Below are positions 15,042 through 54,457 of a stretch of DNA of 64,000 nucleotides, piece by piece (positions within the stretch are counted from its first letter, which is position 1; the number at the start of each line of letters is the position of its first letter). The translations under genes and the position numbers were made by a program. Below the pieces are notes generated by a model. It was not told where the DNA came from. It made no database searches and saw nothing but the letters and a program-made list of their open reading frames with translations. The DNA is from Parcubacteria group bacterium (lineage in GTDB: Bacteria; Patescibacteriota; Minisyncoccia; Moranbacterales; UBA2206), in NCBI GenBank assembly GCA_041645535.1, contig JBAZPT010000002.1, positions 77,605 through 141,604 on the forward strand, given 5' to 3'.

Positions 15042-15187
15042 TGTCGAAAATTCATCCCCACACCAATCGAGGATTAAAAAAATATTTATTTGTTTGATTC
15101 CGGTTATTGTGTGATTGAATATATAAAAGTAAAAATTAAAAACACGCCTTTTGAAAATTATCCTCAATTGGTGTGGGGACAAGCAAA

Positions 15188-26238: not shown

Positions 26239-26266
26239 TTGCGCAACTTTGTTTTTGTGTTATAAT
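26239..26266 (+). promoter_or_regulatory. extended -10 promoter giving a leaderless mRNA for 26273
   Basis: TTGCGC (26239-26244), 16 nt, TGTTATAAT (26258-26266). The ATG at 26273 falls on the predicted +1. Confidence 0.55.
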
Positions 26267-26272
26267 TTTGGC

Positions 26273-27322
26273 ATGCTAATAGAAATAAAACACATCAAAT
26301 TAACTTTGCTGATTTTGTTTAGTTTGGTAGTTTCGAGCTATGCTTTTTTCAGCCTGGCCCAGGAAAATTCGCAGACGCAAAATAATATTTTTATTGATTC
26401 CGACCAGGACGGACTTTCTGACCAGGAAGAAATTTCTTATGGCACTGACCCGCGCAATTCCGATTCGGATCATGATGGATATTCCGACGGCACCGAAATA
26501 AAATCCGGCTATGATCCGCTGATACCTTCTCCAGGAGACAGGGTAGTTAAGGAAACAGAAACAACCTCTGTCAATTCGGCCGATGAAACCAGCCTGACTA
26601 AGGAAGTCGCCCAAAAAATATTAACCCTGACCAACGACACCGCCGCTACCGACGAGGAAAGCCAGCAGATTTCCCTGGATCAAATAAAAACCATTATTAA
26701 TGAATCATTGCAGCCTCAAACAGAGGACGCCGAATTGCCGGCCATTGACAAAAAAGAGCTAAGCATATTAAAGCAAAATTACAAAGGAACAACGGCTGAA
26801 ATAGCGGCCAAAAAAAAGGCGGACTTCATCAATTACGCGGTAGGAATTTATTATGTTTTTTCCAGCAACTCCCAAACGGCCATTACTTCAACCGGCGATA
26901 TACCGAAAACAATCAATCTTATTTCACAGCAGATAATCACCGCCATGACCACGGGAGACTATAAATCCCTCGACGGCTTGAGCAAGAGCGCGGAAAAAAT
27001 TTATGAGCAGATGAAGTCAGTCGAGGTTCCGGAAGAAATGGCTGACGCGCACATTAGAATACTTCAGTTCGCGAAATACGCCGTGACGATCAAGGACTCT
27101 ATGAGCTCCGACTCGCAAGATCCTCTGGCGCAAATTGCTTCTTTGTCCAAAATGCAAAATTTTATCCAGGAGGTAATGTCGTTTTCGGGCGAGATGACTA
27201 CCAAGTTGCAATCTTATGGAATCCAGTTCAGTGAAATGCAAACCACTATGGAAAATTATGGCATTACCCCGCCGGTGGAATCAACTGACACATCCGCGGA
27301 TTCAAGTAACTCGACAGATTAA
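26273..27322 (+). CDS. secreted/anchored protein with thrombospondin-type-3-like Ca-binding repeats
   Basis: Signal anchor, then DSDQDGLSDQEEISYGTDPRNSDSDHDGYSDGTEIKSGYDP, then a helical domain. Confidence 0.65.
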   Translation: MLIEIKHIKLTLLILFSLVVSSYAFFSLAQENSQTQNNIFIDSDQDGLSDQEEISYGTDPRNSDSDHDGYSDGTEIKSGYDPLIPSPGDRVVKETETTSVNSADETSLTKEVAQKILTLTNDTAATDEESQQISLDQIKTIINESLQPQTEDAELPAIDKKELSILKQNYKGTTAEIAAKKKADFINYAVGIYYVFSSNSQTAITSTGDIPKTINLISQQIITAMTTGDYKSLDGLSKSAEKIYEQMKSVEVPEEMADAHIRILQFAKYAVTIKDSMSSDSQDPLAQIASLSKMQNFIQEVMSFSGEMTTKLQSYGIQFSEMQTTMENYGITPPVESTDTSADSSNSTD

Positions 27323-27328
27323 ATTTTT

Positions 27329-28429
27329 ATGAAAAAAATTTCTCGAAAAAAATTATTCTGCGTAAAAATGATTGCCGTCATTCTTTTCAGCTTATCCTTG
27401 AATTTGAGTCCGCTAACCGTACCTAAGGCCTATGCCTGGGAAACATACATTACAACTCCACTGGGAGTAATGCTCGATACTATGATCAGTATAGTTAAGG
27501 GCGTTTTATTGGGTTCGTTGAAACAGGCAGCCGCAAAGGCTCTTAATAAAGAAATAAGCAATATGGTCGGCGGATCTTCTTCTAGCAACGCCATGTTTGT
27601 CACTGACTGGCAGGATTATCTGATTAAACAGCCGGAACAAAAAACCAAAGTCTTTTTGAATGCCTACATCGATCAGGCAACCTCCGGCCGCGGATCGCTT
27701 TCGCAATACATCCCAGCCGGCTCTGAAGGCTTTGGCCTGAACGCCGCCAATTACAACAATCAGCTGAAAATTGGAGCTACCGCTTCCATTGTAAATCCAA
27801 AAGATCCTAAGGTTACCTATGTCGGCAATCCTTCGCAAATGTTCGCTGAAGGTAATTTCCGCAATTTGAGCCTGTATCTTTCCGGCATTAACAATCCCTG
27901 GGCTTTTAATCTGCATATTCAGGAAAAATTTGACGAAACCAAGAAAAATGAACAACTGACGGCCGCTGAAAAAGCTCGCGCGGGATCAGGCTTTACCGGC
28001 ACGGAATCCAACGGCAAAACCATCACGCCAGGTATCTTAATCAAGGAACAAATGGCGGGAGTGCAAAATATTGGCAATACCATTATTGGCAACGCCACCA
28101 ATATTCCGGAAGTGATCACGGCTATTGTTTCCCAAATGGCCATCCAATCAATCAAACAAGGCGTCGGCAAAGTCCAGGCTAACATTCAAAAAGAAGTTAC
28201 CACCGCGCAAAACCAGGCATCCAGCCAACTCAATTCAGCTGTCCAGCAATTGGGTCCGGGAGCGCAATATACCTCCAGCTGGTCGCAAGGCGCTTCTTCC
28301 AGCACCACCTGTGCTGTCGCCTGCGCCGGCACCGGCGCGCATTACGGCGCCAGCTGTACCAGCGCCGAAAATGGAACCGCCGCCTGCCCAACCGTGGCTG
28401 GAAAACAATATTGTTGCATTCCGAGGTAG
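27329..28429 (+). CDS. secreted protein with Cys-rich C-terminus, unknown function
   Basis: N-terminal signal anchor; C-terminus TTCAVACAGTGAHYGASCTSAENGTAACPTVAGKQYCCIPR. Confidence 0.6.
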   Translation: MKKISRKKLFCVKMIAVILFSLSLNLSPLTVPKAYAWETYITTPLGVMLDTMISIVKGVLLGSLKQAAAKALNKEISNMVGGSSSSNAMFVTDWQDYLIKQPEQKTKVFLNAYIDQATSGRGSLSQYIPAGSEGFGLNAANYNNQLKIGATASIVNPKDPKVTYVGNPSQMFAEGNFRNLSLYLSGINNPWAFNLHIQEKFDETKKNEQLTAAEKARAGSGFTGTESNGKTITPGILIKEQMAGVQNIGNTIIGNATNIPEVITAIVSQMAIQSIKQGVGKVQANIQKEVTTAQNQASSQLNSAVQQLGPGAQYTSSWSQGASSSTTCAVACAGTGAHYGASCTSAENGTAACPTVAGKQYCCIPR

Positions 28430-28454
28430 AAAAAGCCGATTTTATTAAAAAGTT

Positions 28455-28937
28455 ATGCCAAAACAAAAATTAATGAAAGAAAATTCCGAAAATATCACTA
28501 ACCATCTGGCTGTTTTTAGGGGCAAAACCATCAGGAAAACAATCTTTCAAAAAGAATGGTGGTTTTCAGTTGTTGATGTCATTCAGGTGCTTATTAACCA
28601 ACAAGATGGTCTAAAAGCTAGAAAATACTGGAACAAACTAGCGCAACGGCTACGAGAGGAGGGAAGTGAAGTGGTGACAAATTGTCACCAGTTGAAATTA
28701 CTGGCTCCTGATGGCAAAATGCGAGAAACAGACTGTGCTAACACGGAAGATATGTTCAGAATTGTGCAATCGATCCCGTCGCCCAAGGCCGAACCACTAA
28801 AACGCTGGCTGGCCAAAGTTGGCTATGAAAGAATTTACCCCATTGGATATGAAATTATCCAACGGGGTGAAGAAATTGAAAATCCGGAATTACCATGGCT
28901 AAATAATTTGACTTTTGCATATATTGGAATTACCTAA
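28455..28937 (+). CDS. Bro-N/antirepressor-like DNA-binding protein, apparently 3'-truncated
   Basis: FRGKTIRKTIFQKEWWFSVVDVIQVL...PKAEPLKRWLAKVGYERI. The frame runs into the GIY-YIG gene. Confidence 0.6.
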   Translation: MPKQKLMKENSENITNHLAVFRGKTIRKTIFQKEWWFSVVDVIQVLINQQDGLKARKYWNKLAQRLREEGSEVVTNCHQLKLLAPDGKMRETDCANTEDMFRIVQSIPSPKAEPLKRWLAKVGYERIYPIGYEIIQRGEEIENPELPWLNNLTFAYIGIT

Positions 28938-28947
28938 CGGGGTAAAA

Positions 28948-29217
28948 ATGAATACTATGTTTTATATTTATATTCTGCAAAGCCTGAAGGATGAAAAATT
29001 TTACGTAGGCTACACGAATGATCTAACAAATAGAAAGAAGAAACACGACAAAGGATTGGTCAATTCCACAAAAAACAGAAGACCTTTGCAACTCGTATAT
29101 TATGAAGCCTGTATTGATCAGCAAGACGCAACCCATAGAGAAAAATATTTGAAAACAGCCTGGGGCAAAAGGTATATAAAAAGCAGGTTGAAAAATCATT
29201 TAGTACTGAAAATTTAA
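28948..29217 (+). CDS. GIY-YIG nuclease-domain protein (stand-alone, ~90 aa)
   Basis: FYIYILQSLKDEKFYVGYTNDLTNRKKKH...REKYLK. The ATG is preceded by TAACGGGGTAAAA. Confidence 0.8.
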   Translation: MNTMFYIYILQSLKDEKFYVGYTNDLTNRKKKHDKGLVNSTKNRRPLQLVYYEACIDQQDATHREKYLKTAWGKRYIKSRLKNHLVLKI

Positions 29218-29265
29218 AATAATTTTTTACGCGACAAAAATAAAAAGCGCATAAAGTAACCTTCG

Positions 29266-31230
29266 ATGAAAACAAAGAAACTAAAAAATATACTTGGCAT
29301 AGGGATTCTGTTTATCGTATCCGTCGGTTTTTTGTTTTTTGGAAACACGGAAGCAGTGGAAGCAGATACTTTAAATTGCGCGTGTTTTAATGGAACTGCG
29401 CCTACTACGGAAAACATAACAGAATATATTGATGTCACTGTTGGAAATAGTTCTTCACCCACACAGGCAGAAACAAATCAATGTTCGGATCTTTGTAAAA
29501 GCAAATCTTATTCAGGTGGCAGTCTTATGGGGAAGATTAGCACTGGAATAGACATGCTCAGTAGGTGGACGGGATATTATTCTCCGGGAAATGTTGCGCA
29601 AAGAAACGTTGTCGATCCTTTAAAGGGCGCCCTTGGCACGATATTTAAGGGCTTGCTAGTTATAGTGTTGATTTTTGTAGGAATGCTTTTGTCAGTTGCT
29701 GCAAGTATCTTCGAGTGGATCACCCAAGTAGGCAATTTTAAATCAGTAGTTGATGGGCCAACTGTGTATACCGCATGGCAAAATGTTAGGGATGTTTTGA
29801 ATATTGCTTTTATTTTAGTTCTTCTTTATTCCGCTTTTTGCACAATTTTACAAATTGAAAGTTATAATTACAAAAAAATACTTTTAAAACTGGTCATAAT
29901 GGCATTGCTTGTAAATTTCAGCTTTCCTATTACCCGATTCATTATTGACACTTCCAATGTTTTGATGTACACAATTATTCAGACACTCTTGCCTGATCAA
30001 ACTTCTAAGCTTTTTTCTGCATTTTCGAATCCCTCTATAACAGCAATTTTAAACCAAGGAACAGAAGCCTCGGGCGTGTCACTGCTCGCTTCCATTGTTT
30101 TTGTTTTTATACTGGCCATCACATTACTGGCAATTGCCATTTTATTTGTCATTCGAATGATAGTTTTAACAATACTTATAATTTTTTCTCCGCTGGCTTT
30201 TGTCGCGACAATTTTTCCCGACACAGGAAGCTATTCCAGCAAATGGTGGGACAATCTTTTTAAGTATTCCTTCTTCGGGCCCATAATGATGTTTATGCTT
30301 TACATATCGGCACAGATAATGGTCTCTACTATAGGCATTAACAAAAGCCTTACTGCAGTCGTACAAAAAAATTCCATCGAGCCTAACTTAGTTGCCGCTA
30401 TGGCCGAATTCTCCGTGCCGATTGTCATCCTTTGGATGGGCATAGGCATGGCTGCTTCCATGAGCGGGGCAGCCGGTTCGGCAGTCATAAGCGGCGCGCA
30501 GAAGTTTATTAAAGGCGCTGGCAAGAAATTCAGCGGTTACAATGCGATTAAAAAACAATATGATGCCTTTGCCGGAGCTCGCAAAAAACGCGAAGAAGCT
30601 AAGGCCAGAAACAGATTTGGAGGCAAAGTCGGCGACTTCACCAATAAGGCGCAGGATACTGTTATTGCAGGAATTCCAGGCGTGGGAGGTGCCGCTCGAA
30701 AACGACTGGATGAAATGGAGCGCAAAAAAATTCAAGAAATTAGAGAGGAATGGAAGAAGATTGGCGGGGCAAGCGATGTTCAACTTAATGATCATCTCAA
30801 CAGCCATGATTCCGCAAAACGCAAAGCAGCTGCCATGGAAATGGCTGAAAAAAATGGTTTTGGAGACGGAACAAATCCGGCTGCAGACTTAGCTCGTTAC
30901 AAATCTGCTTTTGCAGCGATTGAAAATGACCCGGTTTACAAAAAATTATTTGATGAAAAAGTCAAAGAGAAACATGTGCGTCTTATTATCGCCGACGAGA
31001 TTCCAACAAAAGGTCTTGCAGCAGCTTATGATGATAATTTAAAAAATATGACCGCTGACCAACTTGCAAAACAAACCAACTTATTGGATAAAGATGAGTT
31101 TCATGATAACTTCATGCAAACCAAAAAGATATCCGATCCTAATTTTATCATAGAAGTTGCCAAAAGAGCTACCGGAGGCGTTAGAAATGACTGGAAAAGA
31201 GCTGTTCCCAATAGAAATTATACCATCTAA
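29266..31230 (+). CDS. VirB6/TrbL-like polytopic membrane protein with Cys-containing exodomain and long charged C-terminal tail
   Basis: 654 aa; signal peptide, about 7 TM helices, then a Lys/Glu-rich cytoplasmic tail. The call rests on architecture and neighbours; no strict motif was recognised. Confidence 0.5.
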   Translation: MKTKKLKNILGIGILFIVSVGFLFFGNTEAVEADTLNCACFNGTAPTTENITEYIDVTVGNSSSPTQAETNQCSDLCKSKSYSGGSLMGKISTGIDMLSRWTGYYSPGNVAQRNVVDPLKGALGTIFKGLLVIVLIFVGMLLSVAASIFEWITQVGNFKSVVDGPTVYTAWQNVRDVLNIAFILVLLYSAFCTILQIESYNYKKILLKLVIMALLVNFSFPITRFIIDTSNVLMYTIIQTLLPDQTSKLFSAFSNPSITAILNQGTEASGVSLLASIVFVFILAITLLAIAILFVIRMIVLTILIIFSPLAFVATIFPDTGSYSSKWWDNLFKYSFFGPIMMFMLYISAQIMVSTIGINKSLTAVVQKNSIEPNLVAAMAEFSVPIVILWMGIGMAASMSGAAGSAVISGAQKFIKGAGKKFSGYNAIKKQYDAFAGARKKREEAKARNRFGGKVGDFTNKAQDTVIAGIPGVGGAARKRLDEMERKKIQEIREEWKKIGGASDVQLNDHLNSHDSAKRKAAAMEMAEKNGFGDGTNPAADLARYKSAFAAIENDPVYKKLFDEKVKEKHVRLIIADEIPTKGLAAAYDDNLKNMTADQLAKQTNLLDKDEFHDNFMQTKKISDPNFIIEVAKRATGGVRNDWKRAVPNRNYTI

Positions 31231-31241
31231 ATTTAAAAGTT

Positions 31242-32156
31242 ATGCAAATTGATAATCTAAAAATATTTTCAAATTTTTCTCCCATCATTGCCCAACCAAT
31301 GGAAAGAGAAACTACGGAGCAATTTTCAAGAAGATGGGAAAAATTTGATGCTTTGCCTGAAAAAATCAAGGGCAAGCTTTCTGATCCAAAAGTTCCGGAA
31401 TCTATAAAGAATCTTGGAAAAATAAACAATTTAGCACCTCAACAAACCTGTAGTATTTCCAGAGCCATCAGAAGTTACTATTTCGGCGAGTTGAAGTTGG
31501 AGGATATGCCGGCGGTTTTGGCTAAAGAGATACCGATTGATTTGGCGAAAGCGCGGGAGATTTCGAGAATGGTAATTCAAAAGATTATTAATGACAACTC
31601 GGTGGAAGAAGCTTCGCAAGCCAAGCTGGTTCAGATAACTGTCGCTGACGCGCTAAAGGCTTATCCGGAAATTGGGGAGCAGTTGATCACATCCGAAAAA
31701 ATTGTTTTGAAAAATTTTCCGGAACCGGCGCGGCCGTGCCTCAAAAACTGGCTGGCGGATTTCACTTTCACGCTCGGGCGCGACAAACACACGGCGATGG
31801 ACAGGGGCATTTATCTTTTCCAAAGCGCCAACGGAAAGCGGTTGAATTCGCAAGACAGAAACAAGTTGGCTTATATTTTAAAAGCGTTTGATGAAAATTT
31901 GCCTATTTCTGTGAATAAGGATGTGAAGCAAATTGTTTTTGCGCCGCAACCCGAAACCCAAAACCTGAAACCTGAAACCCAGACTCCACCGACACAAGGA
32001 TTTTCCTCTGATATGCATAGCGGCGTGAGATTTTCATCAGCGCAGAAATTGCCATACGAACAAAAACAGGAACAGCCATATGTAATCAAGCCGATAGCGC
32101 CAAAGCAGGAAGAAAATAGACTATTACAGAAAAATGTAGTTGATTTAAGAGAGTAG
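31242..32156 (+). CDS. hypothetical protein (304 aa)
   Basis: ORF in the cluster. Contains the heptamer-repeat stretch at 31955-31990. Confidence 0.5.
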   Translation: MQIDNLKIFSNFSPIIAQPMERETTEQFSRRWEKFDALPEKIKGKLSDPKVPESIKNLGKINNLAPQQTCSISRAIRSYYFGELKLEDMPAVLAKEIPIDLAKAREISRMVIQKIINDNSVEEASQAKLVQITVADALKAYPEIGEQLITSEKIVLKNFPEPARPCLKNWLADFTFTLGRDKHTAMDRGIYLFQSANGKRLNSQDRNKLAYILKAFDENLPISVNKDVKQIVFAPQPETQNLKPETQTPPTQGFSSDMHSGVRFSSAQKLPYEQKQEQPYVIKPIAPKQEENRLLQKNVVDLRE

Positions 32157-32165
32157 TTTTAAAAA

Positions 32166-32284
32166 AGTCTAAAGTATCAAGTCTGAAGTCTAAAAAAAGT
32201 TAAAAGTTGAAAAGTATATAAGTATAAAAAGTTTTTACTTTAATATCTTATACCTCCTTTAGACTTTAAGCTTTAGCCTTTAGA
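32166..32284. repeat. AT-rich intergenic imperfect inverted repeat built from AGTCTAAAG-like units
   Basis: AGTCTAAAGTATCAAGTCTGAAGTCTAAA (32166-32194) versus TTTAGACTTTAAGCTTTAGCCTTTAGA (32257-32283). Confidence 0.5.
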
Positions 32285-32295
32285 ATTTAACGCAT

Positions 32296-32688
32296 ATGTT
32301 ATTCAACATTCCCCAATTTATCGACAAAGAAGACAAAATTGTCGGCCCGCTCACTGCCAAACAGCTGGGCTGGTCGTTCGGCGCGGGCGGAGTGCTGATT
32401 TTTCTCTGGGCCATCCTCGACATTTCCGCCTTCATTATGGCTTCAGTTCCCGTCATAGCCATTTTCGGAGCCTTGGCTTTTTACCGCCCGAACAACATGT
32501 CGCTCATCGCTTTCATTTTTTCCTCCGTCCGTTTTTTTTTCCGCCCGAAAATGTATGTTTGGAAGCGAGTGCCGGATGTTATTAAAATTCAGAAAAAGAC
32601 ACGCCCAGCCAAGACCATTTCCCGCGATACAAGGATTATAAATAATGATAGAATATCGGAGATAACGAAATTGCTGGATCAAAAATAA
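32296..32688 (+). CDS. PrgI/VirB3-like small two-TM T4SS protein
   Basis: MLFNIPQFIDKEDKIVGPLTAKQLGW followed by two TM helices. It lies just upstream of VirB4. Confidence 0.65.
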   Translation: MLFNIPQFIDKEDKIVGPLTAKQLGWSFGAGGVLIFLWAILDISAFIMASVPVIAIFGALAFYRPNNMSLIAFIFSSVRFFFRPKMYVWKRVPDVIKIQKKTRPAKTISRDTRIINNDRISEITKLLDQK

Positions 32689-32692
32689 TTTT

Positions 32693-33379
32693 ATGGAAAT
32701 ATTGCATCAGGACAAATTAGCCAAAAAAACCACGACTGCCGCCACGCAGAGTTTTTTGGATGTCGCTGAAGTCAAAGAAGACGCAATTGTCCTTAAAAAC
32801 GGGTCGCTCCGCTCGGTAATCGCCGTTTCTTCCATAAATTATGATTTGAAATCCACCGACGAACAGGATGCCATTATCAGCCAGTACCAGAATTTCCTGA
32901 ATTCCCTGGATTTTCCGGTGCAAATTATCATTAGTTCCAGAAAGTTGGATATGCAGCATTATCTGGAGTTTTTGAGCGAAAAAGAAAAAGAACAGTCAGG
33001 CGAACTTTTGCGCCTGCAGATTTCCGAATATAAAAATTTCATTACCCAGCTGGTGGAAGTTTCCAACATTATGGACAAGAATTTTTACATTATCGTCCCG
33101 TTTTCGCCCATTGAAAATGAAGAAAAAAGTTTTTTCAGCAATTTCCTGAATGTCCTTAATCCGAAAAAGGGCATTATTGAAAAACGGGAGAATTTTGAAA
33201 CCTGCAAAAGCCAGCTTTTCCAGCGCGTCGATCATGTGATGGCCGGCCTTTCCGGCATTGGACTGCGCCTGGCTCCGCTCCAGACCCAGGAGCTCGTGGA
33301 ACTCCTCTACAACGCGTATAATCCGACCGTTTTTAATTTATCCGAACTGGGAGAAATCAAGGAACTTGATTTAAAATAA
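32693..33379 (+). CDS. hypothetical protein resembling a VirB4 N-terminal region
   Basis: AEVKEDAIVLKNGSLRSVIAVSSINYDLKSTDEQDAIISQYQNFLNSLDFPVQIIISSRKLD. The stop is 1 nt before the VirB4 start. Confidence 0.45.
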   Translation: MEILHQDKLAKKTTTAATQSFLDVAEVKEDAIVLKNGSLRSVIAVSSINYDLKSTDEQDAIISQYQNFLNSLDFPVQIIISSRKLDMQHYLEFLSEKEKEQSGELLRLQISEYKNFITQLVEVSNIMDKNFYIIVPFSPIENEEKSFFSNFLNVLNPKKGIIEKRENFETCKSQLFQRVDHVMAGLSGIGLRLAPLQTQELVELLYNAYNPTVFNLSELGEIKELDLK

Positions 33380-33380
33380 A

Positions 33381-35207
33381 ATGTTTAATTTTACTAAAAC
33401 TAAAAAAAGCGCTCCGGCTGGCAAAGAAGAACAGGATGAGCTTCTGCGCAGTGAAAAATATTACCGCGAGGGCATTGCTCAGCTTACAGATCTGATCGCG
33501 CCGGCCGCCATCAAGGTTATGCCGCGCTATATCCGCGTCGGCGAAATTTTGGCGGAAACGCTTTTTGTTATCGCTTATCCGCGTTATCTCCACAGCAATT
33601 GGTTTTCGCCAATTATCAATATTGACGCGCCGATTGATATTTCCATGTTTATCCATCCGATTGATACCGCGGAAATTTTGAAGTCGCTGCGAAAAAGCAT
33701 CACGCAAGTTGAATCGCAGATCAACATCGAGCAGGAAAAAGGGCTGGTACGCGATCCATCGCTCGAAACCGCGGCCAAAGATATTGAAGAACTGCGCGAC
33801 AAGCTCCAACAGGGAACGGAAAAATTTTTTCGCTACGGACTTTACATCACCATGTATGGGCAGGACGAAAAAGAGCTGGAAAAAATCGGAAAATCCATAA
33901 CTTCAATTTTGGAAGCGCAATTGGTTTATGTGAAACCCGCCGTTTTTAAATCGGAACAAGGGTTTGTCTCATCGCTTCCCATCGCCAATGATGAACTGGA
34001 CATCGGCACCAGCATGAATTCAGCTCCGCTTTCCACTTCGTTTCCCTTTGTTTCTTCGACCCTTTCCAATGATGAGGGCATCCTTTACGGCATCAACCGC
34101 CACAACAACAGTTTGATAATTTTCGACCGCTTCAAAATGGAAAACGCCAATATGGTGGTTTTCGCCAAGTCCGGCGCCGGCAAAAGTTATACGGTAAAAC
34201 TGGAGGTTTTGCGCTCGATGATGATCGGCACCGATGTCATCATTATCGATCCGGAAAATGAATACAAGCACTTGTGCGATACGGTTGGCGGAACTTTCGT
34301 AAAAATTTCCTTGAATTCCGACCAGCATATCAACCCGTTTGATTTGCCGAAACTCATCGAGGGCGAGGATCCGGAAGATATTTTGCGCAATAACATTGCT
34401 AATCTCATCGGCCTTCTGCATATTATGCTCGGTTCAATCACGCCGGAAGAAGATTCGATTTTAGACAAAGCCATCCATGAAACTTATTCCATCCGCGACA
34501 TAACCTCGCAAACCGATTTCAATGCTCTGGCCAGGGAAGCTTTTCCGACAATGACCGATCTCTATGAAGTGCTGCGCAATATGCAGGGCGGCGAGGATAT
34601 GGCAACCAGACTCGAAAAATATACCGAGGGAGTTTTCGCGGGATTTCTCAATAACACGACCAATGTGCGCGTCGACAACCAGCTGGTAGTTTTCAACATC
34701 CGCGATATGGAAGAGGAACTGCGCCCGATTGCTATGTATGTAGTTTTGCAATACATCTGGAACGAAATGCGCACCAACTTGAAAAAAAGGCTGGTGCTGG
34801 CGGACGAAGCCTGGGTGATGATGAAATATGAAGACGCGGCATCCTTTCTTTTCGGCATTGCCAAGCGCTGTCGGAAATATTATACCGGCCTCACCACCAT
34901 CACGCAGGATGTCAATGACTTTCTGGCTTCGCGCTATGGCAAGCCGATTGTCACCAATTCATCCATCCAGCTCCTGCTCAAGCAATCGCCGGCCGCCATT
35001 GATGTGATTACGGAAACATTTTACCTTACCGACCAGGAAAAATTCCTGCTTCTGGAAAGCAATGTGGGCGAAGGCATTTTTTTCGCCGGCACCAAGCATG
35101 TGGCCATCAAGGTTATCGCCTCCTATTCGGAAGACCAGATTATCACCACCGATCCGGCCCAGCTTTTGGAAATTGAACAAGCCAAAAAAGATTTTGAATC
35201 AGAATAA
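33381..35207 (+). CDS. VirB4/TrbE-family T4SS ATPase
   Basis: 608 aa; Walker A FAKSGAGKSYT, IIDPENEY, Walker B RLVLADEAW, TTITQD. Confidence 0.85.
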   Translation: MFNFTKTKKSAPAGKEEQDELLRSEKYYREGIAQLTDLIAPAAIKVMPRYIRVGEILAETLFVIAYPRYLHSNWFSPIINIDAPIDISMFIHPIDTAEILKSLRKSITQVESQINIEQEKGLVRDPSLETAAKDIEELRDKLQQGTEKFFRYGLYITMYGQDEKELEKIGKSITSILEAQLVYVKPAVFKSEQGFVSSLPIANDELDIGTSMNSAPLSTSFPFVSSTLSNDEGILYGINRHNNSLIIFDRFKMENANMVVFAKSGAGKSYTVKLEVLRSMMIGTDVIIIDPENEYKHLCDTVGGTFVKISLNSDQHINPFDLPKLIEGEDPEDILRNNIANLIGLLHIMLGSITPEEDSILDKAIHETYSIRDITSQTDFNALAREAFPTMTDLYEVLRNMQGGEDMATRLEKYTEGVFAGFLNNTTNVRVDNQLVVFNIRDMEEELRPIAMYVVLQYIWNEMRTNLKKRLVLADEAWVMMKYEDAASFLFGIAKRCRKYYTGLTTITQDVNDFLASRYGKPIVTNSSIQLLLKQSPAAIDVITETFYLTDQEKFLLLESNVGEGIFFAGTKHVAIKVIASYSEDQIITTDPAQLLEIEQAKKDFESE

Positions 35208-35211
35208 AAGT

Positions 35212-35721
35212 ATGTCTATCGAACAAAATATTGAGCGAGCCAATAAATTAAAAGAGCTAAGAAAAGGCATGGAAAAAAGTCCCTTGAAAAAGGCTAAGTT
35301 TGTGGCAGGAAAACTTGCCCTAATGAAATATTTCAATCCTTATATGGATTGGCTCTATGGCATCGCATTATCCGCCGCTCTCTTGAAAGATATTGTGGAT
35401 CTAGTCGGAATCGGCTCTCTTCCCGCTATTGGCACTGTCATTACCCTTATGGCTTCTATCACTATTTTTGCGGTTATGTTCATTACCGGTAATTTTTTTA
35501 AAAAACGCTGGGCTAAAAAAGTTGGGGTTGTTTTTATGGGAACGGCCGTTGAAATAATTTTTGGACTTAATTTTCTACCGGTTGAAACAGCTATCGTTAT
35601 AATTGTTTTTTACCTGGCTTTGGACGATAGGCGAAAAGAAGCCGAAGCCGCTGAAAAGAAAAAGGCGCAAGCGACCGGGCAGAGCGCAAATTATTCTCCA
35701 CAACCCGAATTTGCAGCGTAA
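35212..35721 (+). CDS. membrane protein (169 aa), unknown function
   Basis: ATG at 35212 (MSIEQNIERANK). The longer track ORF overlaps VirB4 and is rejected. Three or four TM helices and a charged tail. Confidence 0.55.
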   Translation: MSIEQNIERANKLKELRKGMEKSPLKKAKFVAGKLALMKYFNPYMDWLYGIALSAALLKDIVDLVGIGSLPAIGTVITLMASITIFAVMFITGNFFKKRWAKKVGVVFMGTAVEIIFGLNFLPVETAIVIIVFYLALDDRRKEAEAAEKKKAQATGQSANYSPQPEFAA

Positions 35722-35726
35722 AAAAT

Positions 35727-36386
35727 ATGGTTAATTATAAAAAACTGAATATTCTCGCCTGGAGAGAAGACCTCGTAACTTTGGCGGTTATTGCTTTTTG
35801 CCTGTTGCTGGTAACTTTTTTTCCCGCCAGCGGAACTTCGCAATTTTTTACAAAAACTTTATTTTTTTTGCTAGTCGTTCCGATCTTGTATATTAAGCTT
35901 ATCCTAAAAAAATCTCTCAGCCAATTTGGATTCAACTTGAAAAATCCTAAACCTGGCATCCTGTGGTCATCCGCGGCCCTGGGGCTTTCCTTGCTTTTAT
36001 TTTTTGCGTTTTTACATTTTTACCCATTTTCAAATACAAACTTGCCGAACGCGATAACAGTTTCGTTTTGGGCATTCCTGTTTTATGAGCTAGTAATAGT
36101 CAGTTCCCTGTTTTTCTTGCAACAATTTTTCACCCAAGGCTTCGCGTTATTTTCTTTCAAGGAAAAGTTTGGAATCTGGTCTATTGTTTTTTCTTTTCTA
36201 GTCTTATTGATTTTTCTGCTGTCAAACAACAGCCTTGCGCTTTCTGACTTGCCCTTGCTTGTTTTTTTTCTGACGGGCAGCTTGGTTTCCTATAAGAGCG
36301 GTTCATTTATTTATTCCTACGCGGCCGGCTTATTATTTTTCATCTTGACGCATAGTTATTTAATCCATCTTATTAAAAATTTATGA
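35727..36386 (+). CDS. polytopic membrane protein (219 aa, ~6 TM), unknown function
   Basis: Hydrophobic ORF. Its stop overlaps the next start (ATGA at 36383). Confidence 0.55.
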   Translation: MVNYKKLNILAWREDLVTLAVIAFCLLLVTFFPASGTSQFFTKTLFFLLVVPILYIKLILKKSLSQFGFNLKNPKPGILWSSAALGLSLLLFFAFLHFYPFSNTNLPNAITVSFWAFLFYELVIVSSLFFLQQFFTQGFALFSFKEKFGIWSIVFSFLVLLIFLLSNNSLALSDLPLLVFFLTGSLVSYKSGSFIYSYAAGLLFFILTHSYLIHLIKNL

Positions 36387-39046
36387 TAAACAAAAAAATA
36401 TTTTTGCCGACACTGATTGTCCTCTTGATTTTTTTCGCCTTAAGCACCCAGAACGCGCGAGCTTATGATATGACCGCCTTTCTCGGCAATCCCAAGGCCG
36501 GCATCAACAACATGCTGGACGCGCTTGGGTTCAACAAGGATGAAACGAATGAAATGGTAAAAAATTTGAATGTTTCCCGCAAAAAAAAGCAAGCGCCCCA
36601 GGTTTCTCTGGATTTCTCTCCGGGAAATCCGACTGAGGGAGAGAAGGTTACCGCCGCCGCCAAGCCTATCTATTTTCTTAATGATATCTCCCGGCTTTAT
36701 TACACCTGGTATCTCAAGCATAATAACAACGATGGGGTTAAAACTCATTTTGACAAAACTTTGGAAAAAACTATCGACTGCGATGAGGATGGCAACTGCG
36801 ATCTTAACGACGATGGAGATATTGATATAGAAGACTGGAAAATAGAAGCCGCCCGGATTATCGCCAGCAATGATTTTGATTGGGAGAAAGCCGATTATTC
36901 GTCCACCAGCAAGGATGATGACGGTTACAAGGCCTATTTGGGCGGCGACGATCAACAAGGCAAGGATCCGGAACCAGAAAAACACTGCTACCTTCACAAC
37001 TTTGAAACCGGAGATGATTTCAATATCCCGGAGGATAAATGCAAGCATCTTTTCCCTAATGCTCCTGAAAAAAATAACAATGATTTTGAAACCGGCGACG
37101 ATTCTTTCAATAAAGACGAAGAAAAATTCTGGCGAACCGATCCGCAAAATCCCGACACGGCCAACACGGGAGAGACGGACGAAGCCAATGTAGCCGGACT
37201 GGGAATTGAGGAATTTACCTGGAACTATCAAAATGGCGACAAGATTGGCGTAGCCGTGGAAGGAATTTCCATGGATCCTACCCAGTCGCCGGACGCGTCT
37301 TACAAAATAATGTGGGCCACGCTCAAAAACGAGACCTGTGATTCGGTTTCGGATTCCCTGGATGAAACCAGTGATTCCTTAGCAAACCTGACAAACGGCA
37401 CAGCCACGGTCGTATCTGATCCTGTGGTTACTACTGATCCCGTTACCGGCAACGAAACTACCGTTGAGGTGACCACGGAAACAACCACTGTAGTTAATTT
37501 AAGTGATTCTACCGCCGAAATAACCACTGTCGCTACCACCACGACAACTGTCAGGGACAGCGGCGACAATATAATTTCCGGACCGACAACCACGACCACA
37601 ACCAGTGTGCAAAATATCGGCTCCGACGCGGACATTGACGATTTCAATGAATGTCTGGAAGACAATCTTATTTCGCCCACCGAAGGCGGGGAGTCGCAAA
37701 AAATTGATGTTTTACTTTCCTATTTTCCGACTTCTCCTATCAATGATCCGACGGGAGAAAACGCCACGGAAATCGTAGTTAATTCTTCCATTACCAACGC
37801 CAATGACCAAAATATTTTGAAATATGCCTGGCAGGTATATAAAAGCGATGTTATCAACCCGGACAGCTGGGGCGATCCATTGTTAAAATCAGAGCTCCCT
37901 GGAATCGGCCAGACTACGGGAGCGGGACTCTCTTCAATCAAATTTAAGCCGCAATTTAAAGATCCAGCGCCAAAATTTTTGAAAGTAAAATTAAGCGTTA
38001 CGGAAAACAGTTCCGCAGACAGCGAGAGAGAAGGCCATTCGAATGTCATAATCCCGCTTTCCCTGACTTCCAATAAAATTAGTGTTTTTTCAGTCGCGGT
38101 ATCGCCGATTTTGGTTTTAAGTTTAGAGCAAGCTGAGCGATGCGCAGCCGGCATGGACAAAGCTTTCTGTCCGATAGTACAAAATGAGATTGTCGGAATG
38201 TCAGTGGCCAAAGAAAACTACACGAATTTTGCCTGGACGGTAAACGGTAATCCTATTAAGGCTATAAACTATCCTAGCGGCGGATCGTGCCTCTCAGGAG
38301 AGTGTAATAAAACTACCAGCGACAACACTAATATAGCCTTTTTTCCGGTTTTAAAAGAAAAAGGAGTAAAATATGATGTATCGCTTACCGCCAGTAATGC
38401 TGCGGGAGAAAAAATAACTCTGACTAAAAATTTTGAAGTCGTTGATCCGGAAATAAAAATTATTTCCTCCGACACTGCCGCTTGCCGGCCCGTTCTTTTG
38501 GGAAATTACCTGGATCTTGATGGAACGCCGTGGCCGGATTATAGCGATAAAAATTTCCAGGCCGCCCCGGGATCAACTATTTCGCTCATCCCCATTCTCA
38601 ATAATCCTTTCGCACAAGATCTTCTTTGGTATATCGACGGAGTGGCGCTGACACCTGAAAATATGTCCTACTTTGGAGCAGCTGTTTCTTCAAGCAGAGC
38701 ATTAACTTTTCCAGCCGCCAAACAATTGGGAGAAATTTATAATATTTCCGTAAGAGCTCTTTACTCGCAGGACAATAACACCAAGAAATTTTTAAATCTT
38801 AACGAAGGAGTGCAGATGAGCGAATTTTCTGAAAGCACTATGTCTGACAGCATTGAAATTCAAATGGCTAGTTTAGCCGGAGTACCGGGAGCCCAGAAGT
38901 CCGTTCCGCGCAAATTTTTGGCCGCCATTTTCACCGGACTGCCGGCTTATATCAGCTTCCTGTTCCGCATTGTGCTTACCGTTATGTTAATTTTGGCCGT
39001 TTTCTGGATCACCATGAGTCTCAACCTCGGAACGCGAGAAGAATAA
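36383..39046 (+). CDS. large surface protein (887 aa) with Asp-rich Ca-binding-like motifs, Thr-rich linker and C-terminal TM anchor
   Basis: Signal peptide, DCDEDGNCDLNDDGDIDIEDW, TTVATTTTTVRDSGDNIISGPTTTTTTSV, and C-terminal helix FLAAIFTGLPAYISFLFRIVLTVMLILAVFWITM. Confidence 0.65.
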   Translation: MINKKIFLPTLIVLLIFFALSTQNARAYDMTAFLGNPKAGINNMLDALGFNKDETNEMVKNLNVSRKKKQAPQVSLDFSPGNPTEGEKVTAAAKPIYFLNDISRLYYTWYLKHNNNDGVKTHFDKTLEKTIDCDEDGNCDLNDDGDIDIEDWKIEAARIIASNDFDWEKADYSSTSKDDDGYKAYLGGDDQQGKDPEPEKHCYLHNFETGDDFNIPEDKCKHLFPNAPEKNNNDFETGDDSFNKDEEKFWRTDPQNPDTANTGETDEANVAGLGIEEFTWNYQNGDKIGVAVEGISMDPTQSPDASYKIMWATLKNETCDSVSDSLDETSDSLANLTNGTATVVSDPVVTTDPVTGNETTVEVTTETTTVVNLSDSTAEITTVATTTTTVRDSGDNIISGPTTTTTTSVQNIGSDADIDDFNECLEDNLISPTEGGESQKIDVLLSYFPTSPINDPTGENATEIVVNSSITNANDQNILKYAWQVYKSDVINPDSWGDPLLKSELPGIGQTTGAGLSSIKFKPQFKDPAPKFLKVKLSVTENSSADSEREGHSNVIIPLSLTSNKISVFSVAVSPILVLSLEQAERCAAGMDKAFCPIVQNEIVGMSVAKENYTNFAWTVNGNPIKAINYPSGGSCLSGECNKTTSDNTNIAFFPVLKEKGVKYDVSLTASNAAGEKITLTKNFEVVDPEIKIISSDTAACRPVLLGNYLDLDGTPWPDYSDKNFQAAPGSTISLIPILNNPFAQDLLWYIDGVALTPENMSYFGAAVSSSRALTFPAAKQLGEIYNISVRALYSQDNNTKKFLNLNEGVQMSEFSESTMSDSIEIQMASLAGVPGAQKSVPRKFLAAIFTGLPAYISFLFRIVLTVMLILAVFWITMSLNLGTREE

Positions 39047-39109
39047 AAAATTCTTGCGTTATCGCTTTGCATTTTCTATAATAAAAGTAGCAACCGTATT
39101 AAAACAAAA

Positions 39110-39970
39110 ATGAATAAAAAAATAATTATTATTCTTTTTCTGTTAGTTTTTCTGTCATTACCTTTTTTTGCCAGCGCCCAAACAACTGGTCCTTTTAATT
39201 ATGTCCCTCTTGAAAAAATTCCCGGCTCGGACAAGGAAACTTCACAAGCGATTGATTTTTATACTTATGTTTCAGCTATTTACAAGTTCGGGATCTGGGC
39301 GGTAGGGATTGTGGCGCTGTTTATGCTGGTTTTTGGAGGCTACACCTACATCACTTCCGCCGGCAATAACAGTTCGATGGAAACAGCCAAAAAAATCATT
39401 ACCGACGCGATCGTGGGCGTTATTATGGCGCTCACCGCTTATCTTTTGCTTTTTGCGATTAATCCTGATTTGGTAAAAATGAAAAAACTGGCTCCAGTAG
39501 CAGGGATATCTGGTACAGGAACAGGGGCCACAACCACAGGAGCAACGGGAGCGCCCAGTGGCGTTGGCAAATGCGTACCACTAACTACCGGCCCTTGTTC
39601 AGTTGATAATCTGAAAAGTTCCTGTTTTGGAGCGACAAACGCAGAAAAAGCTTCGGCTATTTGCAACGCTGAAAGCGTTGGCGATCCAAGAGCCCTAAGC
39701 ATATCCGATAAATGCAAAAAGGGACAATCGTTTTCTGTGGGATTATTTCAAATTAACTTAACCGTTCATGACATCGGCAACGGTTGCACTTCGGCTTTTT
39801 CGGGCAAGAATTATGCTTGTTCCGTCACTGATCAAAACAAATACGATCAGTGCGTTTCCCTGGCGCAAGATTCAACCAAAAACATCCAGGAGGCTTGTGC
39901 TATTTTCAAGGCCAGCGGTTGGAATGCTTGGGGGGCTAATACTGATCCTGTTAAAGGCTGTCATTTTTAA
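39110..39970 (+). CDS. VirB2/T4SS-pilin-like domain fused to a lytic-transglycosylase (SLT/lysozyme)-like domain
   Basis: Signal peptide plus two-helix pilin module (FGIWAVGIVALFMLVFGGYTYITSAGN...AIVGVIMALTAYLLLFAINP), a Gly/Thr linker, then AICNAESVGDP...SVGLFQINL. Confidence 0.6.
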   Translation: MNKKIIIILFLLVFLSLPFFASAQTTGPFNYVPLEKIPGSDKETSQAIDFYTYVSAIYKFGIWAVGIVALFMLVFGGYTYITSAGNNSSMETAKKIITDAIVGVIMALTAYLLLFAINPDLVKMKKLAPVAGISGTGTGATTTGATGAPSGVGKCVPLTTGPCSVDNLKSSCFGATNAEKASAICNAESVGDPRALSISDKCKKGQSFSVGLFQINLTVHDIGNGCTSAFSGKNYACSVTDQNKYDQCVSLAQDSTKNIQEACAIFKASGWNAWGANTDPVKGCHF

Positions 39971-40010
39971 ACTATCTTTTCTCTGATAATTAAATAATCT
40001 AATCTTATAT

Positions 40011-40544
40011 ATGTCCAAGAATACAAAACTCATTATCGTTGTTTTTTCAATCATTCTTTTGGTGGTTGCTGTCTATTTTTTTATAACTCTCCGCTCTAAT
40101 CCACAAAAGCCGTTGGCACAGCCCCAAACGCCTCCACAGACACAACAACCCGGCTCATCTCCAACAAGCAACTTTGTTGTTCCCCCAAAAGACTCTGGAA
40201 AAATGGTTATTACCATATCTCAAGGCAGTCTTGAAATTAACAATCTTTACAAAAATCCGGTGGCAGATTTACCCGGCAATGGCGTTGCTTTCAAAGAAAC
40301 TAACGATTATCATATGGATTTTTATCCACAAGACGAAGGCTTTATTATAGCCATTCAAAATCCAGATATCCAGACAGCCAGAGATATAGCAGAAGTTGAT
40401 TTTTTGCAAGCCTTGGGCATAACCAAGGATCAAGCTTGCTCTTTAAAAGTTACTCTGGGCGTTCCTTACAATGTAAATCAACAGGCTGCGGGACAAAATT
40501 ACGGACTTAGTTTTTGCCCAAATGGTAAATCTTTTAATCAATAG
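40011..40544 (+). CDS. membrane-anchored secreted protein (177 aa) with Pro/Gln-rich linker
   Basis: ORF with an N-terminal TM helix. Confidence 0.5.
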   Translation: MSKNTKLIIVVFSIILLVVAVYFFITLRSNPQKPLAQPQTPPQTQQPGSSPTSNFVVPPKDSGKMVITISQGSLEINNLYKNPVADLPGNGVAFKETNDYHMDFYPQDEGFIIAIQNPDIQTARDIAEVDFLQALGITKDQACSLKVTLGVPYNVNQQAAGQNYGLSFCPNGKSFNQ

Positions 40545-40560
40545 ACCCGTTTAATTACTT

Positions 40561-41697
40561 ATGACCCCCTCTAAAAAAATCTTCATCGCTTCCACCGCCA
40601 TTTTGGCTTTTCTCCTGATTTTCTGGGGCATTTATTCTTTTTCTTTCAAAAAGACAACTCCTCCATCCAACGCGCCGACGGAAGAAAAAACCGAGCCGGT
40701 TGCCGTTCCAAAAACATCTGCTTCGCAAATCACAGCCATCAGCGATGAAGCCGTGCTGGCCCCGGTGCTCACGCCGGAAAAAAACGCCGTCAAATATTAT
40801 TCTAAAAACGACGGGCGGGCTTATCAAATAAACTTGGACGGCACTAATAAAAAAATCTTGAGCGACAAGGAACTCCCGGGTCTCGTTTCCATAGCCTGGT
40901 CGCCCGATACCAGCAAGGTAATTACCCGCTTTGAAAACAACGGCAAAAATAAATTTTATTATTACGACTACGGAAAAAACCAGGGCGTCCAGCTCAAGGA
41001 AAACCTGGACACCGTATTCTGGCAGAATGACAATAAAATTATTTACAAATATTTCGATCCTAAAACCAAAGAACGGACACTCAATATTTCCGATCCGGAC
41101 GGCTCCAATTGGAATAAAATAACCGACATTGCTTTTCGCAACCTCTCTCTGGCTCCCATCCCCAAGACCGGCCTGCTTTCTTTTTGGAATTCACCGGACG
41201 CTTTTTTTGAAACATCCTTCCTGTCAACTCCGATTATCGGCGGGGAAAAAAAGACCATATTGGCCGGAAAGTTCGGCGCTGATTATCTCTGGAGCCCCGA
41301 CGGCAACCTGATCTTAATTAGCAGCTCTCAGGAAAAAGCCAGCCCCCGGATGCAGCTGGCAATTGCCAATGATCGGGGCGGAGAATATAAAAATCTGGAC
41401 ATTCCTACCTTTATTTCCAAGGCCGCTTGGTCGCGCGACAATAAAACCGTTTATTACGCCCTCCCGGGAAATGTTCCGGCCAACGCTATTCTCCCTAATG
41501 ATTACAACGATAAAAAATTCCTTTCCACGGATACTTTCTGGAAAGTTAATGTCGCCAATGGAGAAAAGTCAAGAATCATCCCCTTGGATAAAATCAGCGG
41601 CCAATATGACGCAACCGATTTATTTTTGAATTCCGACGAAAGCCTGCTTTTTTTCATTAATCGCGCGGACGGGAAGTTGTATAAAATAGACCTATAA
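40561..41697 (+). CDS. membrane-anchored TolB-like beta-propeller (PD40/WD40-like repeats)
   Basis: Repeated WSPDTSKV, WSPDGNLILIS and AWSRDNKTVYY motifs. Confidence 0.65.
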   Translation: MTPSKKIFIASTAILAFLLIFWGIYSFSFKKTTPPSNAPTEEKTEPVAVPKTSASQITAISDEAVLAPVLTPEKNAVKYYSKNDGRAYQINLDGTNKKILSDKELPGLVSIAWSPDTSKVITRFENNGKNKFYYYDYGKNQGVQLKENLDTVFWQNDNKIIYKYFDPKTKERTLNISDPDGSNWNKITDIAFRNLSLAPIPKTGLLSFWNSPDAFFETSFLSTPIIGGEKKTILAGKFGADYLWSPDGNLILISSSQEKASPRMQLAIANDRGGEYKNLDIPTFISKAAWSRDNKTVYYALPGNVPANAILPNDYNDKKFLSTDTFWKVNVANGEKSRIIPLDKISGQYDATDLFLNSDESLLFFINRADGKLYKIDL

Positions 41698-44147: not shown

Positions 44148-44234
44148 GCCCTAATCCTCGCATATTTTGGGTTTTCGCGCAAAAAAATAGCTGCCAATTT
44201 AAAACGACAGCTATTGAGAATTTTTATAATATTT

Positions 44235-44561
44235 TCAAGCATATTTGATGCCTTTTATGCCTTTTGGCATTTCGACCCGTTTCCAGTTCTCAAGAAATTC
44301 CTTTTCAAAAGAAGTGGAAAACTTTTCAGGCATTAGGTTTATAAAACCAAACCTCTCTGTTAATACTCCCGACTGTCTAACTTTGAACTTATAACTGCAT
44401 TTTCTGCCAAAGATAGAGCCGCCACCCACTTTTGTTTGAACATTCTTTCCAGGCCTCGGAATGTGCTTTCTCCATATATTTTTTGTAAAAGAAGCCACTC
44501 CATTTTCCTCACCCGTAATCAAATTGCAGAAGGTTATGCTGACATATGCCTCAATCTTCAT
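44235..44561 (-). CDS. hypothetical protein (108 aa)
   Basis: ORF with an SD-like AAGGGGGAA upstream. Confidence 0.45.
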   Translation of the reverse strand: MKIEAYVSITFCNLITGEENGVASFTKNIWRKHIPRPGKNVQTKVGGGSIFGRKCSYKFKVRQSGVLTERFGFINLMPEKFSTSFEKEFLENWKRVEMPKGIKGIKYA

Positions 44562-44579
44562 GGTTCCCCCTTTTTGTTT

Positions 44580-45308: not shown

Positions 45309-45356
45309 TTTTCCAGACTATGTCAAATCATTGCATATGCAAGAAATTGACATACT

Positions 45357-54449: not shown

Positions 54450-54457
54450 GGTAATAT

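Follow-up and report, generated by a model that had tools for sequence, protein, structure and literature searches.

Type IV secretion systems (T4SSs) of Patescibacteria were described in 2023-2025, so the gene cluster reported here, g01 to g15 on a 64-kb stretch of DNA (the window) from a Moranbacteria (class Paceibacteria) metagenome-assembled genome (MAG), is an example of such a system and not a discovery; at system level it holds nothing new. In the saccharibacterium Southlakia epibionticum, the origin-proximal T4SS cluster SEML1_0006-0019 was found to be essential for growth on the host and to encode pilins, with no recognisable relaxase or coupling protein (Wang 2023, PMC10633639). The main text of Quinonero-Coronel 2025 (PMC12102498) describes a Patescibacteria VirB4 clade allied to MPF_FATA, with TrsD, PrgI/VirB3, VirB6 and PF18895 pilins encoded beside virB4, VirB1 associated with virB4 in Paceibacteria, and Paceibacteria T4SS loci lying near dnaA, dnaN and KsgA. 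According to the same text, relaxases are almost absent from Patescibacteria, and VirD4-like/type IV coupling protein (T4CP) genes occur in many genomes, mostly far from virB4.

We have high confidence that the window cluster encodes a Patescibacteria-type T4SS, and it is likely that the system is chromosomal, vertically inherited, derived from MPF_FATA and no longer conjugative. It consists of a split VirB4 (g08 and g09), the VirB3/PrgI protein g07, the VirB6/TrbL-like protein g05 and a pilin-transglycosylase (g13), together with lineage-specific partners that travel with this core (g06, g10, g11 and g12) and clade-specific surface proteins (g01, g02, g14 and g15). For this DNA, the original prediction was of a T4SS-like surface machine, relaxase-less and coupling-protein-less, in an episymbiont with a small genome, and our analysis supports this, with the absence of a coupling protein holding for the 64-kb window. 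It had also called the composition largely uncharacterised, which no longer applies to the system at large: the architecture, the missing relaxase and the origin-proximal position have been published (PMC10633639; main text of PMC12102498).

What the locus adds is a gene-by-gene parts list of a strongly conserved Moranbacteria version and three uncharacterised conserved partners, g06, g11 and g12, which will offer well-defined targets for genetics and structural biology when co-cultures of Paceibacteria become tractable. A large part of bacterial diversity belongs to the Patescibacteria, which live on the surface of other microbes, and the way in which they obtain building blocks from these hosts has yet to be settled. 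The T4SS, essential in the sole species tested, is the leading candidate for the conduit.

Core genes of the secretion system

The cluster spans positions 26249-41697, with every gene on the + strand (Table 1). The ORF listing contains 15 open reading frames (ORFs) where fourteen had been counted originally, while the shared direction and the small spacers (-23 to +139 nt) were as predicted. Cluster GC content (0.40-0.445) was the same as that of the remainder of the window. The NCBI proteins WC608_03605 and WC608_03575 are identical to g12 and g06, respectively. Relatives were obtained by a scan of one genome per species, which yielded 314 VirB4 relatives; the cluster genes were mapped by tblastn and hidden Markov model (HMM) searches onto the best 80 loci, to which all locus counts below refer.

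Table 1. Genes of the cluster, with window coordinates and the basis of each assignment
Gene	Feature	Coordinates	Strand	Basis
g01	Acidic secreted/anchored protein with bacterial thrombospondin type-3 (Ca-binding) repeats	26249..27322	+	PF18884
g02	366-aa secreted/anchored protein, Cys-rich C-terminal tail	27329..28429	+	Hydrophobic N-terminal segment, synteny
g03+g04	Truncated Bro-N gene overlapping small GIY-YIG nuclease gene	28455..29217	+	Pfam
g05	Extended VirB6/TrbL-like polytopic membrane protein	29266..31230	+	TrbL match, homologues, hydrophobic segments
g06	Conserved cytoplasmic helical protein	31242..32156	+	AlphaFold2 (AF2) model, synteny
g07	PrgI/VirB3-like small membrane protein	32296..32688	+	Pfam PF12666
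g08	TrsD/TraD-like protein (228 aa), VirB4 N-domain as a separate gene	32693..33379	+	NCBIfam TrsD, VirB4 models
g09	VirB4 ATPase, CD1110 / MPF_FATA type	33381..35207	+	NCBIfam NF045971
g10	Small membrane protein, cytoplasmic N-terminus, 2-3 transmembrane (TM) segments	35212..35721	+	Synteny
g11	Polytopic CPBP/Rce1-like relative, ~6 hydrophobic segments	35727..36386	+	Pfam matches of family members
g12	887-aa anchored surface protein	36383..39046	+	AF2 model, Foldseek
g13	VirB2-like T4SS pilin fused to lysozyme-like lytic transglycosylase	39110..39970	+	T4SS_pilin and SLT_3
g14	177-aa single-pass membrane protein	40011..40544	+	Hydrophobic segment
g15	Membrane-anchored beta-propeller	40561..41697	+	Partial TIGR02800, weak PD40

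The VirB4 assignment of g09, made already in the original prediction, was borne out by a score of 376.5 bits against NF045971, the model of the CD1110-family VirB4 of Gram-positive conjugative elements (curated cut-off 325), and by Pfam matches to P-loop_TraG (E 2e-27), AAA_10 and TraC_F_IV. The nearest solved structure was Thermoanaerobacter VirB4 (4AG5, E 2.4e-51), with Gram-negative TrwK reaching just E 9e-5. Walker A (GAGKS) and Walker B (LADEAW) motifs can be read in the translation, and g09 appears to be the sole ATPase of the system.

Two assignments go beyond the original prediction: g08 as a TrsD-like VirB4 N-domain and g13 as a fusion of pilin and transglycosylase. Although the match of g08 to NCBIfam TrsD (E 1.4e-7) scored 31.5 bits against a cut-off of 200, the protein also aligned to residues 93-239 of the VirB4 model of a Mycoplasma integrated conjugative element (ICE; E 1.9e-11) and was found in 78 of the 80 loci. 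On the CD1110 VirB4 model (752 positions) g08 covers 2-120 and g09 covers 186-734. Because the two proteins match complementary parts of this model and their genes lie 1 nt apart, VirB4 appears to be split as in TrsD/TrsE of pGO1, a reading that we consider solid. An hhalign comparison of the g08 family with the g09 family found no similarity, as would be expected if g08 supplies the portion of VirB4 missing from g09, and this was not counted against the split.

Upstream of this pair is g07, whose identification as a PrgI/VirB3 protein was upheld by a PF12666 score of 46.6 bits (cut-off 27). It directly precedes g08-g09 in 75/80 loci and would anchor VirB4 at the membrane. For g05, a Cys-rich N-terminal ectodomain is followed by a hydrophobic TM core of ~6 segments and a C-terminal hydrophilic domain of ~250 aa, and the gene is syntenic in 47 loci. 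The VirB6/TrbL call of the original prediction stands for the family and not for the window copy itself, which scored 18 bits against Pfam TrbL (E 0.0026), below the gathering cut-off of 25.9; two homologues with 38-42% identity (P0250 and P0323) pass it, with 31.1 and 27.8 bits over the same TM region. Three of the 20 family members scanned matched TrbL at E<=0.01. A profile of the family alignment returned nothing below E 0.3 among PDB sequences, and its hhalign comparison with PrgH of pCF10 was not significant. We accept g05 as a VirB6-like protein at the level of its family. Many g05 homologues carry a precomputed PF19590 annotation, which was not used as evidence.

The pilin call for g13 was confirmed narrowly for the window copy (PF18895, T4SS_pilin, 26.8 bits against a cut-off of 26.6, E 5.5e-6) and more broadly by its family, in which 30/32 members match T4SS_pilin (best E 5.8e-21) and nine match SLT or SLT_3. 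In this protein a signal peptide comes first, then two hydrophobic helices of the pilin, a Gly/Thr linker and an SLT_3 domain (E 2.7e-6, above the gathering cut-off) that is lysozyme-like, rich in Cys and carries an E-S motif. A VirB1-like function is predicted for this transglycosylase domain. No other protein in the window matched a pilin HMM.

Conservation, chromosomal setting and absence of conjugation genes

VirB4 of the window shares 68-87% identity with its counterparts in the best 80 loci, nearly all of which are titled as MAGs of Patescibacteria, Parcubacteria or, mostly, Moranbacteria, with ~20 labelled 'uncultured Bdellovibrionales'. Across these loci, the median identity of VirB4 (72.5%) exceeded that of the housekeeping neighbours ComM (65%) and RsmA (55%). 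In clade A (~30 species), the order of the window is repeated, with RsmA-UbiA, g01-g02-g05...g13-g15 and the Wzy genes, without g03/g04; the lysozyme-like domain fused to the pilin varies in subtype between these species. Clade B has a mini-module of pilin(s)-PrgI-TrsD-VirB4-g10 on the opposite side of ComM-G5-RsmA, with VirB6 more distant, and contains a single protein in which a Cys-rich N-domain is followed by two pilin domains. Clade C keeps g05-g12 and lacks g01 and g02, and no pilin was found within 10 kb of VirB4. Because an identical gene order recurs in ~30 related species-level genomes, the cluster is far beyond what chance would produce.

The upstream flank consists of housekeeping genes, namely ComM/YifB, a G5-DPBB wall hydrolase, RsmA/KsgA (at 23614, 1.8 kb upstream of the cluster) and a UbiA-family protein. 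On the downstream side, the opposite strand carries two O-antigen-ligase-like genes, two GT2 glycosyltransferases, a flippase, Jag/KhpB and YidC, and beyond them dnaA (49726, 8 kb downstream of the cluster) and dnaN. The dnaA/dnaN genes (49726-52536) coincide with a sign change of the GC skew near 50 kb, as viewed over 40-54 kb, which places the chromosomal replication origin inside the window. Given the housekeeping flanks and the nearby dnaA/dnaN, we conclude that the cluster is chromosomal and ends 8 kb from this origin.

Nearly all non-overlapping ORFs of at least 150 aa in the 64 kb, including every ORF of at least 400 aa, were scanned with Pfam, and no relaxase, VirD4/TcpA or VirB11 was found among them, in line with the original prediction. 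A conjugative T4SS or ICE is recognised by a relaxase, a T4CP and element boundaries; the first two were not found among these ORFs, and the only recombinase in the window scores as XerC/D, with housekeeping genes between it and the cluster. The earlier view that a conjugative element is unlikely is also supported, given the lack of a relaxase and T4CP in the window, the housekeeping flanks and the synteny across many Moranbacteria species.

Rfam and tRNA scans returned nothing in or near the cluster, and a PHROG search of the cluster proteins gave nothing beyond a Bro-N match. As promoter and terminator signals in the cluster were not clearly above those in shuffled controls, operon boundaries were not called.

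Several further features of the window were recorded. At 2163-4549, genes for tRNA-Ala and tRNA-Met are followed on the opposite strand by a tyrosine recombinase, which scored as XerC/D just below the curated cut-offs; we considered it as an ICE boundary and rejected it on account of the Xer-like score and the housekeeping genes in between. The two Wzy_C O-antigen-ligase-like genes, two GT2 genes and flippase that adjoin the cluster end (41657-47646, - strand) may be a co-located surface-polysaccharide module, and the Wzy pair is syntenic with the cluster in ~20 relatives. Right after dnaN, the region 53500-64000 is low in GC (0.34-0.39) and encodes Fic, RhuM, DUF6498, a LexA-like S24 peptidase and an HsdR_N/N6-methylase fusion, and has the appearance of an island of variable defence or mobile genes. 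An ORF of 424 aa at 15173-16447 had no match in Pfam, NCBIfam or PHROG. The PNPase gene (12781-14907) shares the origin-proximal neighbourhood, and a 2026 preprint has tied PNPase and VirB4 to host-RNA feeding in the Patescibacteria phylum.

Partner proteins, surface proteins and a mobile insertion

Four genes without an assigned T4SS role accompany the core. The helical domain of g06 (residues 1-235) is followed by a disordered Pro/Gln-rich tail in which family alignments reveal the short conserved motifs FSSPQKLPYEK and NVVNLK. Its AF2 model had a mean predicted local distance difference test (pLDDT) score of 85.6, with residues 20-235 mostly above 90. This fold was unmatched by Foldseek in PDB and BFVD (best E 0.47 and 1.2), no family in Pfam, NCBIfam or PHROG was matched, and an alignment profile returned nothing below E 0.3 among PDB sequences. 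The gene is syntenic in 52 loci, and g06 homologues form 672 representative clusters at E<=1e-30. We propose that g06 is a substrate-handling or docking factor.

For g10 there was no match in the family databases or, as an alignment profile, among PDB sequences below E 0.3, and hhalign comparisons with PrgF and PrgG were negative; it is a conserved core partner that follows VirB4 in 64 of the loci, those with the clade B mini-module among them. Of the two unknown membrane proteins listed in the original prediction, one, g11, did not remain without a family: 13 members of its family matched PF02517 (CPBP/Rce1-like; best E 1e-7), and it is best described as a degenerate CPBP/Rce1-like protein, syntenic in 53 loci. 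The CPBP catalytic motifs EExxxR, FxxxH and HxxxN are not present. Because the family alignment has no conserved His and the E...R motif is gone from the copy in the window, which reads QQFFTQG where relatives have YEVFFRG, g11 is probably a CPBP relative in fold or family and not an active protease.

The 887-aa anchored surface protein of the original prediction, g12, could be refined with AF2 (mean pLDDT 84) and Foldseek to a membrane-anchored chain of Ig/cadherin-like domains. A signal/anchor segment, a conserved acidic N-domain and a Thr-rich linker precede the tandem Ig/cadherin-like beta-sandwiches, and a TM helix forms the C-terminus; the N-domain holds, at residues ~125-150 of g12, an acidic DxDxDG-like stretch (CDEDGNCDLNDDGDIDIED). 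Pfam and NCBIfam gave no match. Foldseek matched protocadherins, Hoc, SiiE, an RTX adhesin and an S-layer protein in PDB (E ~1e-8 to 1e-6), which makes g12 a candidate adhesin or stalk. All its homologues are labelled 'hypothetical' and all come from Parcubacteria or Moranbacteria.

Among the remaining surface genes, g01, g02 and g15 are peripheral and restricted to clade A. The thrombospondin type-3 repeats foreseen in g01 were detected in two stretches (TSP3_bac, PF18884, E 2e-9) behind one N-terminal hydrophobic segment, and the gene was found in 26 loci, each time directly upstream of g02-g05. With these repeats and the DxDxDG-like stretch of g12, two surface proteins of the cluster look calcium-binding by sequence. 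The Cys-rich secreted protein of the original prediction corresponds to g02, with an N-terminal hydrophobic segment and seven Cys, either secreted or anchored; it is syntenic in 27 loci and was without a match in Pfam, NCBIfam, PHROG or PDB sequences (nothing below E 0.3 with an alignment profile). Poorly conserved, with tblastn matches in 4 loci, g14 occupies the position of the second pilin gene of relatives; it matched no family in Pfam, NCBIfam or PHROG and no pilin HMM. As for g15, the beta-propeller of the original prediction was retained and the TolB label was not: the match to TIGR02800 (TolB; E 1.7e-8) covers residues 55-151 alone, at 33.8 bits against a cut-off of 343, short of a full-length TolB. 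PD40 was weak for g15, and its family members match several propeller families. We therefore describe g15, which is syntenic in 22 loci, as a predicted generic beta-propeller that is TolB-like by fold alone.

In a correction to the original description, two ORFs of the cluster are not counted as parts of the machine. Between g02 and g05 lie the overlapping Bro-N and GIY-YIG genes g03 and g04 (E 3e-11 and 8.6e-15), which are missing from the ~30 syntenic relatives; the Bro-N protein covers just positions 5-116 of 274 in phrog_15286. Homologues elsewhere were found solely in one locus, L003, at two other positions within the same T4SS cluster, and because these positions differ the genes are taken to be mobile. 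They look like a lineage-specific selfish insertion that hops within the operon. A search for repeats around the insertion did not find a convincing target-site duplication.

Proposed function and comparison with known systems

VirB4, VirB3, VirB6 and VirB2, together with a wall hydrolase, are the builders of the inner-membrane platform and pilus. Because these parts are present and the recruiters of conjugative substrates are absent, we favour a VirB4-driven apparatus for building a tube or translocon where the cell touches its host; likewise, with no relaxase, coupling protein or second ATPase nearby, the cluster is read as a pilus-building translocon that would exchange macromolecules with the host. 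In such a machine, VirB4 hexamers would dock via VirB3 onto the VirB6 platform, pull pilin out of the membrane and polymerise the tube, for whose passage the fused transglycosylase would open the cell wall locally. The Ca-binding g01 and Ig-like g12 may hold the tube against the host cell, and the propeller g15 may also be a surface or adhesion part. On balance we lean towards a system that builds a pilus or tube, and only tentatively towards one that imports rather than exports, preferably host nucleic acids. The idea of import draws on analogy with Helicobacter ComB and archaeal Ced/Ted; in Ced/Ted, VirB2, VirB4 and VirB6 proteins import DNA into single-membrane cells with no relaxase (PMC9905601). 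In a saccharibacterium, ComEC was dispensable and the T4SS essential, so that another route of nucleotide supply is needed in Saccharibacteria, and for a cultured relative it is reported in a 2026 preprint that host RNA is acquired and that there are tubular structures 'that may be T4SS pili'.

Several observations weigh against this interpretation. Most relatives have 2-3 tandem pilin genes (loci L033-L055, e.g., L036:7700-8629, and L007:15967-18640), whereas the window has one; since this single pilin is fused to an enzyme, g13 may serve to anchor the enzyme in the membrane and may not polymerise. The VirB6 call is weak for the window's own copy of g05, which falls below the Pfam cut-off. 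No VirB8-like component was identified in the cluster, with hhalign comparisons against PrgK, PrgF and PrgG negative; g14, a TM segment with a small domain and only 4 homologues, was considered as a putative VirB8-like protein. A VirD4-like gene could lie elsewhere in the genome, 'coupling-protein-less' being a statement about the 64-kb window. Finally, a 2024 PNAS perspective calls the role of the T4SS completely unknown, and the direction and substrate of transport in Saccharibacteria likewise.

It is conceivable that the cluster is what is left of an integrated conjugative element, a T4SS module that has lost its relaxase, coupling protein and integrase. The membership of its VirB4 in the CD1110 family of Gram-positive conjugative elements, the selfish Bro-N and GIY-YIG genes inside it and the tyrosine recombinase beside tRNA genes 22 kb upstream would all fit such a history. 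However, chromosomal position and gene order are shared by ~30 species with VirB4 70-87% identical, and because the position of the locus is fixed across species an ICE remnant is unlikely. The core genes have no frameshifts, the GC content of the cluster is not deviant, and the recombinase, with its XerC/D score, has PNPase, UvrD, ComM and RsmA between it and the cluster. Of the signs that such a history could leave, neither patchy presence in close relatives nor flanking attachment-site repeats nor pseudogenised core genes were seen. Taken together, we give this origin almost no credence.

The other alternatives concern what a functional machine would do. One is a contact-dependent exporter of effectors, comparable to the Brucella VirB and Bordetella Ptl systems, which have no coupling protein, that injects proteins so that the host leaks or its envelope is remodelled. 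Protein-secreting T4SSs without a T4CP do exist (PMC12102498; PMC12857230), and the suggestion has been made for the Saccharibacteria system that it 'may instead export proteins' (Wang 2023, PMC10633639). In addition, the tail of the cytoplasmic g06, disordered and carrying conserved short motifs, recalls C-terminal T4SS signals. The toxin that Ptl handles is assembled in the periplasm, and a periplasmic route has been discussed for Brucella VirB, but in a monoderm there is no such compartment where this step could be staged. Pfam and NCBIfam searches of the cluster found no effector-like gene or toxin domain, and g06 equals the structural genes in conservation and keeps a fixed position, as is more to be expected of a component of the machine than of a rapidly evolving effector; we regard export as rather unlikely. 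Still less probable, in our judgement, is an organelle for adhesion only, in which a VirB2-type pilus built by VirB4 and the Ig-like and Ca-binding proteins attach the epibiont and transport nothing. VirB4, VirB3, VirB6 and VirB2 are the parts required for pilus biogenesis, no substrate-recruiting ATPase was found among the window ORFs scanned, and both the adhesin-like g12 and the repeats of g01 would suit attachment. Yet type IV pili already serve attachment and motility in these bacteria, conservation is as strong in the VirB6 channel protein and in the cytoplasmic g06 as it is in the pilin, and clade C, with no pilin within 10 kb of VirB4, still keeps g05-g12.

Returning to the pilus-building translocon, a more specific version is that an accessory set of the Moranbacteria type not described before (g06, g10, the catalytically dead CPBP-like g11, g12 and the pilin-transglycosylase) turns a conjugation-derived T4SS into a host-feeding importer; as a whole we consider this doubtful. 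It would have g06 replace the coupling protein as a cytoplasmic substrate-handling or gating factor, and the CPBP-like g11 would partner the fused cell-wall hydrolase. A comparable partnership is reported in Staphylococcus between the CPBP-like SpdC and the hydrolase SagB.

Among known systems, the T4SS of Patescibacteria is matched in its MPF_FATA-related VirB4, PrgI/VirB3, PF18895 pilin and VirB1-type hydrolase near virB4, probably also in its TrsD (here the TrsD-like g08) and VirB6 (here g05, VirB6-like at family level), in having no relaxase or T4CP near virB4 and in its position near dnaA/dnaN/ksgA. The window differs in having one pilin fused to a transglycosylase and not a pilin array, and g06, the CPBP-like g11, the Ig-like g12, g01 with its TSP3 repeats, the propeller g15 and g02 are partners beyond those in the main text of PMC12102498.

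With the conjugative MPF_FATA systems (pCF10 prg/pcf, CTn2 of C. difficile and pGO1 trs), the cluster shares a CD1110-family VirB4, PrgI and a cell-wall hydrolase in the operon; the separate TrsD-like N-domain recalls pGO1, and the VirB6-VirB3-VirB4 order is colinear with PrgH-PrgI-PrgJ of pCF10. In contrast to these systems, the window has no relaxase, VirD4/PcfC or accessory relaxosome genes and no detectable homologues of PrgK, PrgL, PrgF or PrgG, the locus is chromosomal and vertically inherited, and it includes a VirB2-like pilin, which the Gram-positive systems lack. The archaeal Ced/Ted systems and ComB of Helicobacter pylori are analogous in composition, being domesticated T4SSs with VirB4-like, VirB6-like and VirB2-like proteins and no relaxase or coupling protein, and they serve for import (PMC9905601). 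The similarity to the Ced/Ted ATPase is distant, g09 scoring 56 bits against the CedB model (cut-off 700), which places it outside that family by sequence, and ComB differs in that it acts across an outer membrane and passes on to ComEC.

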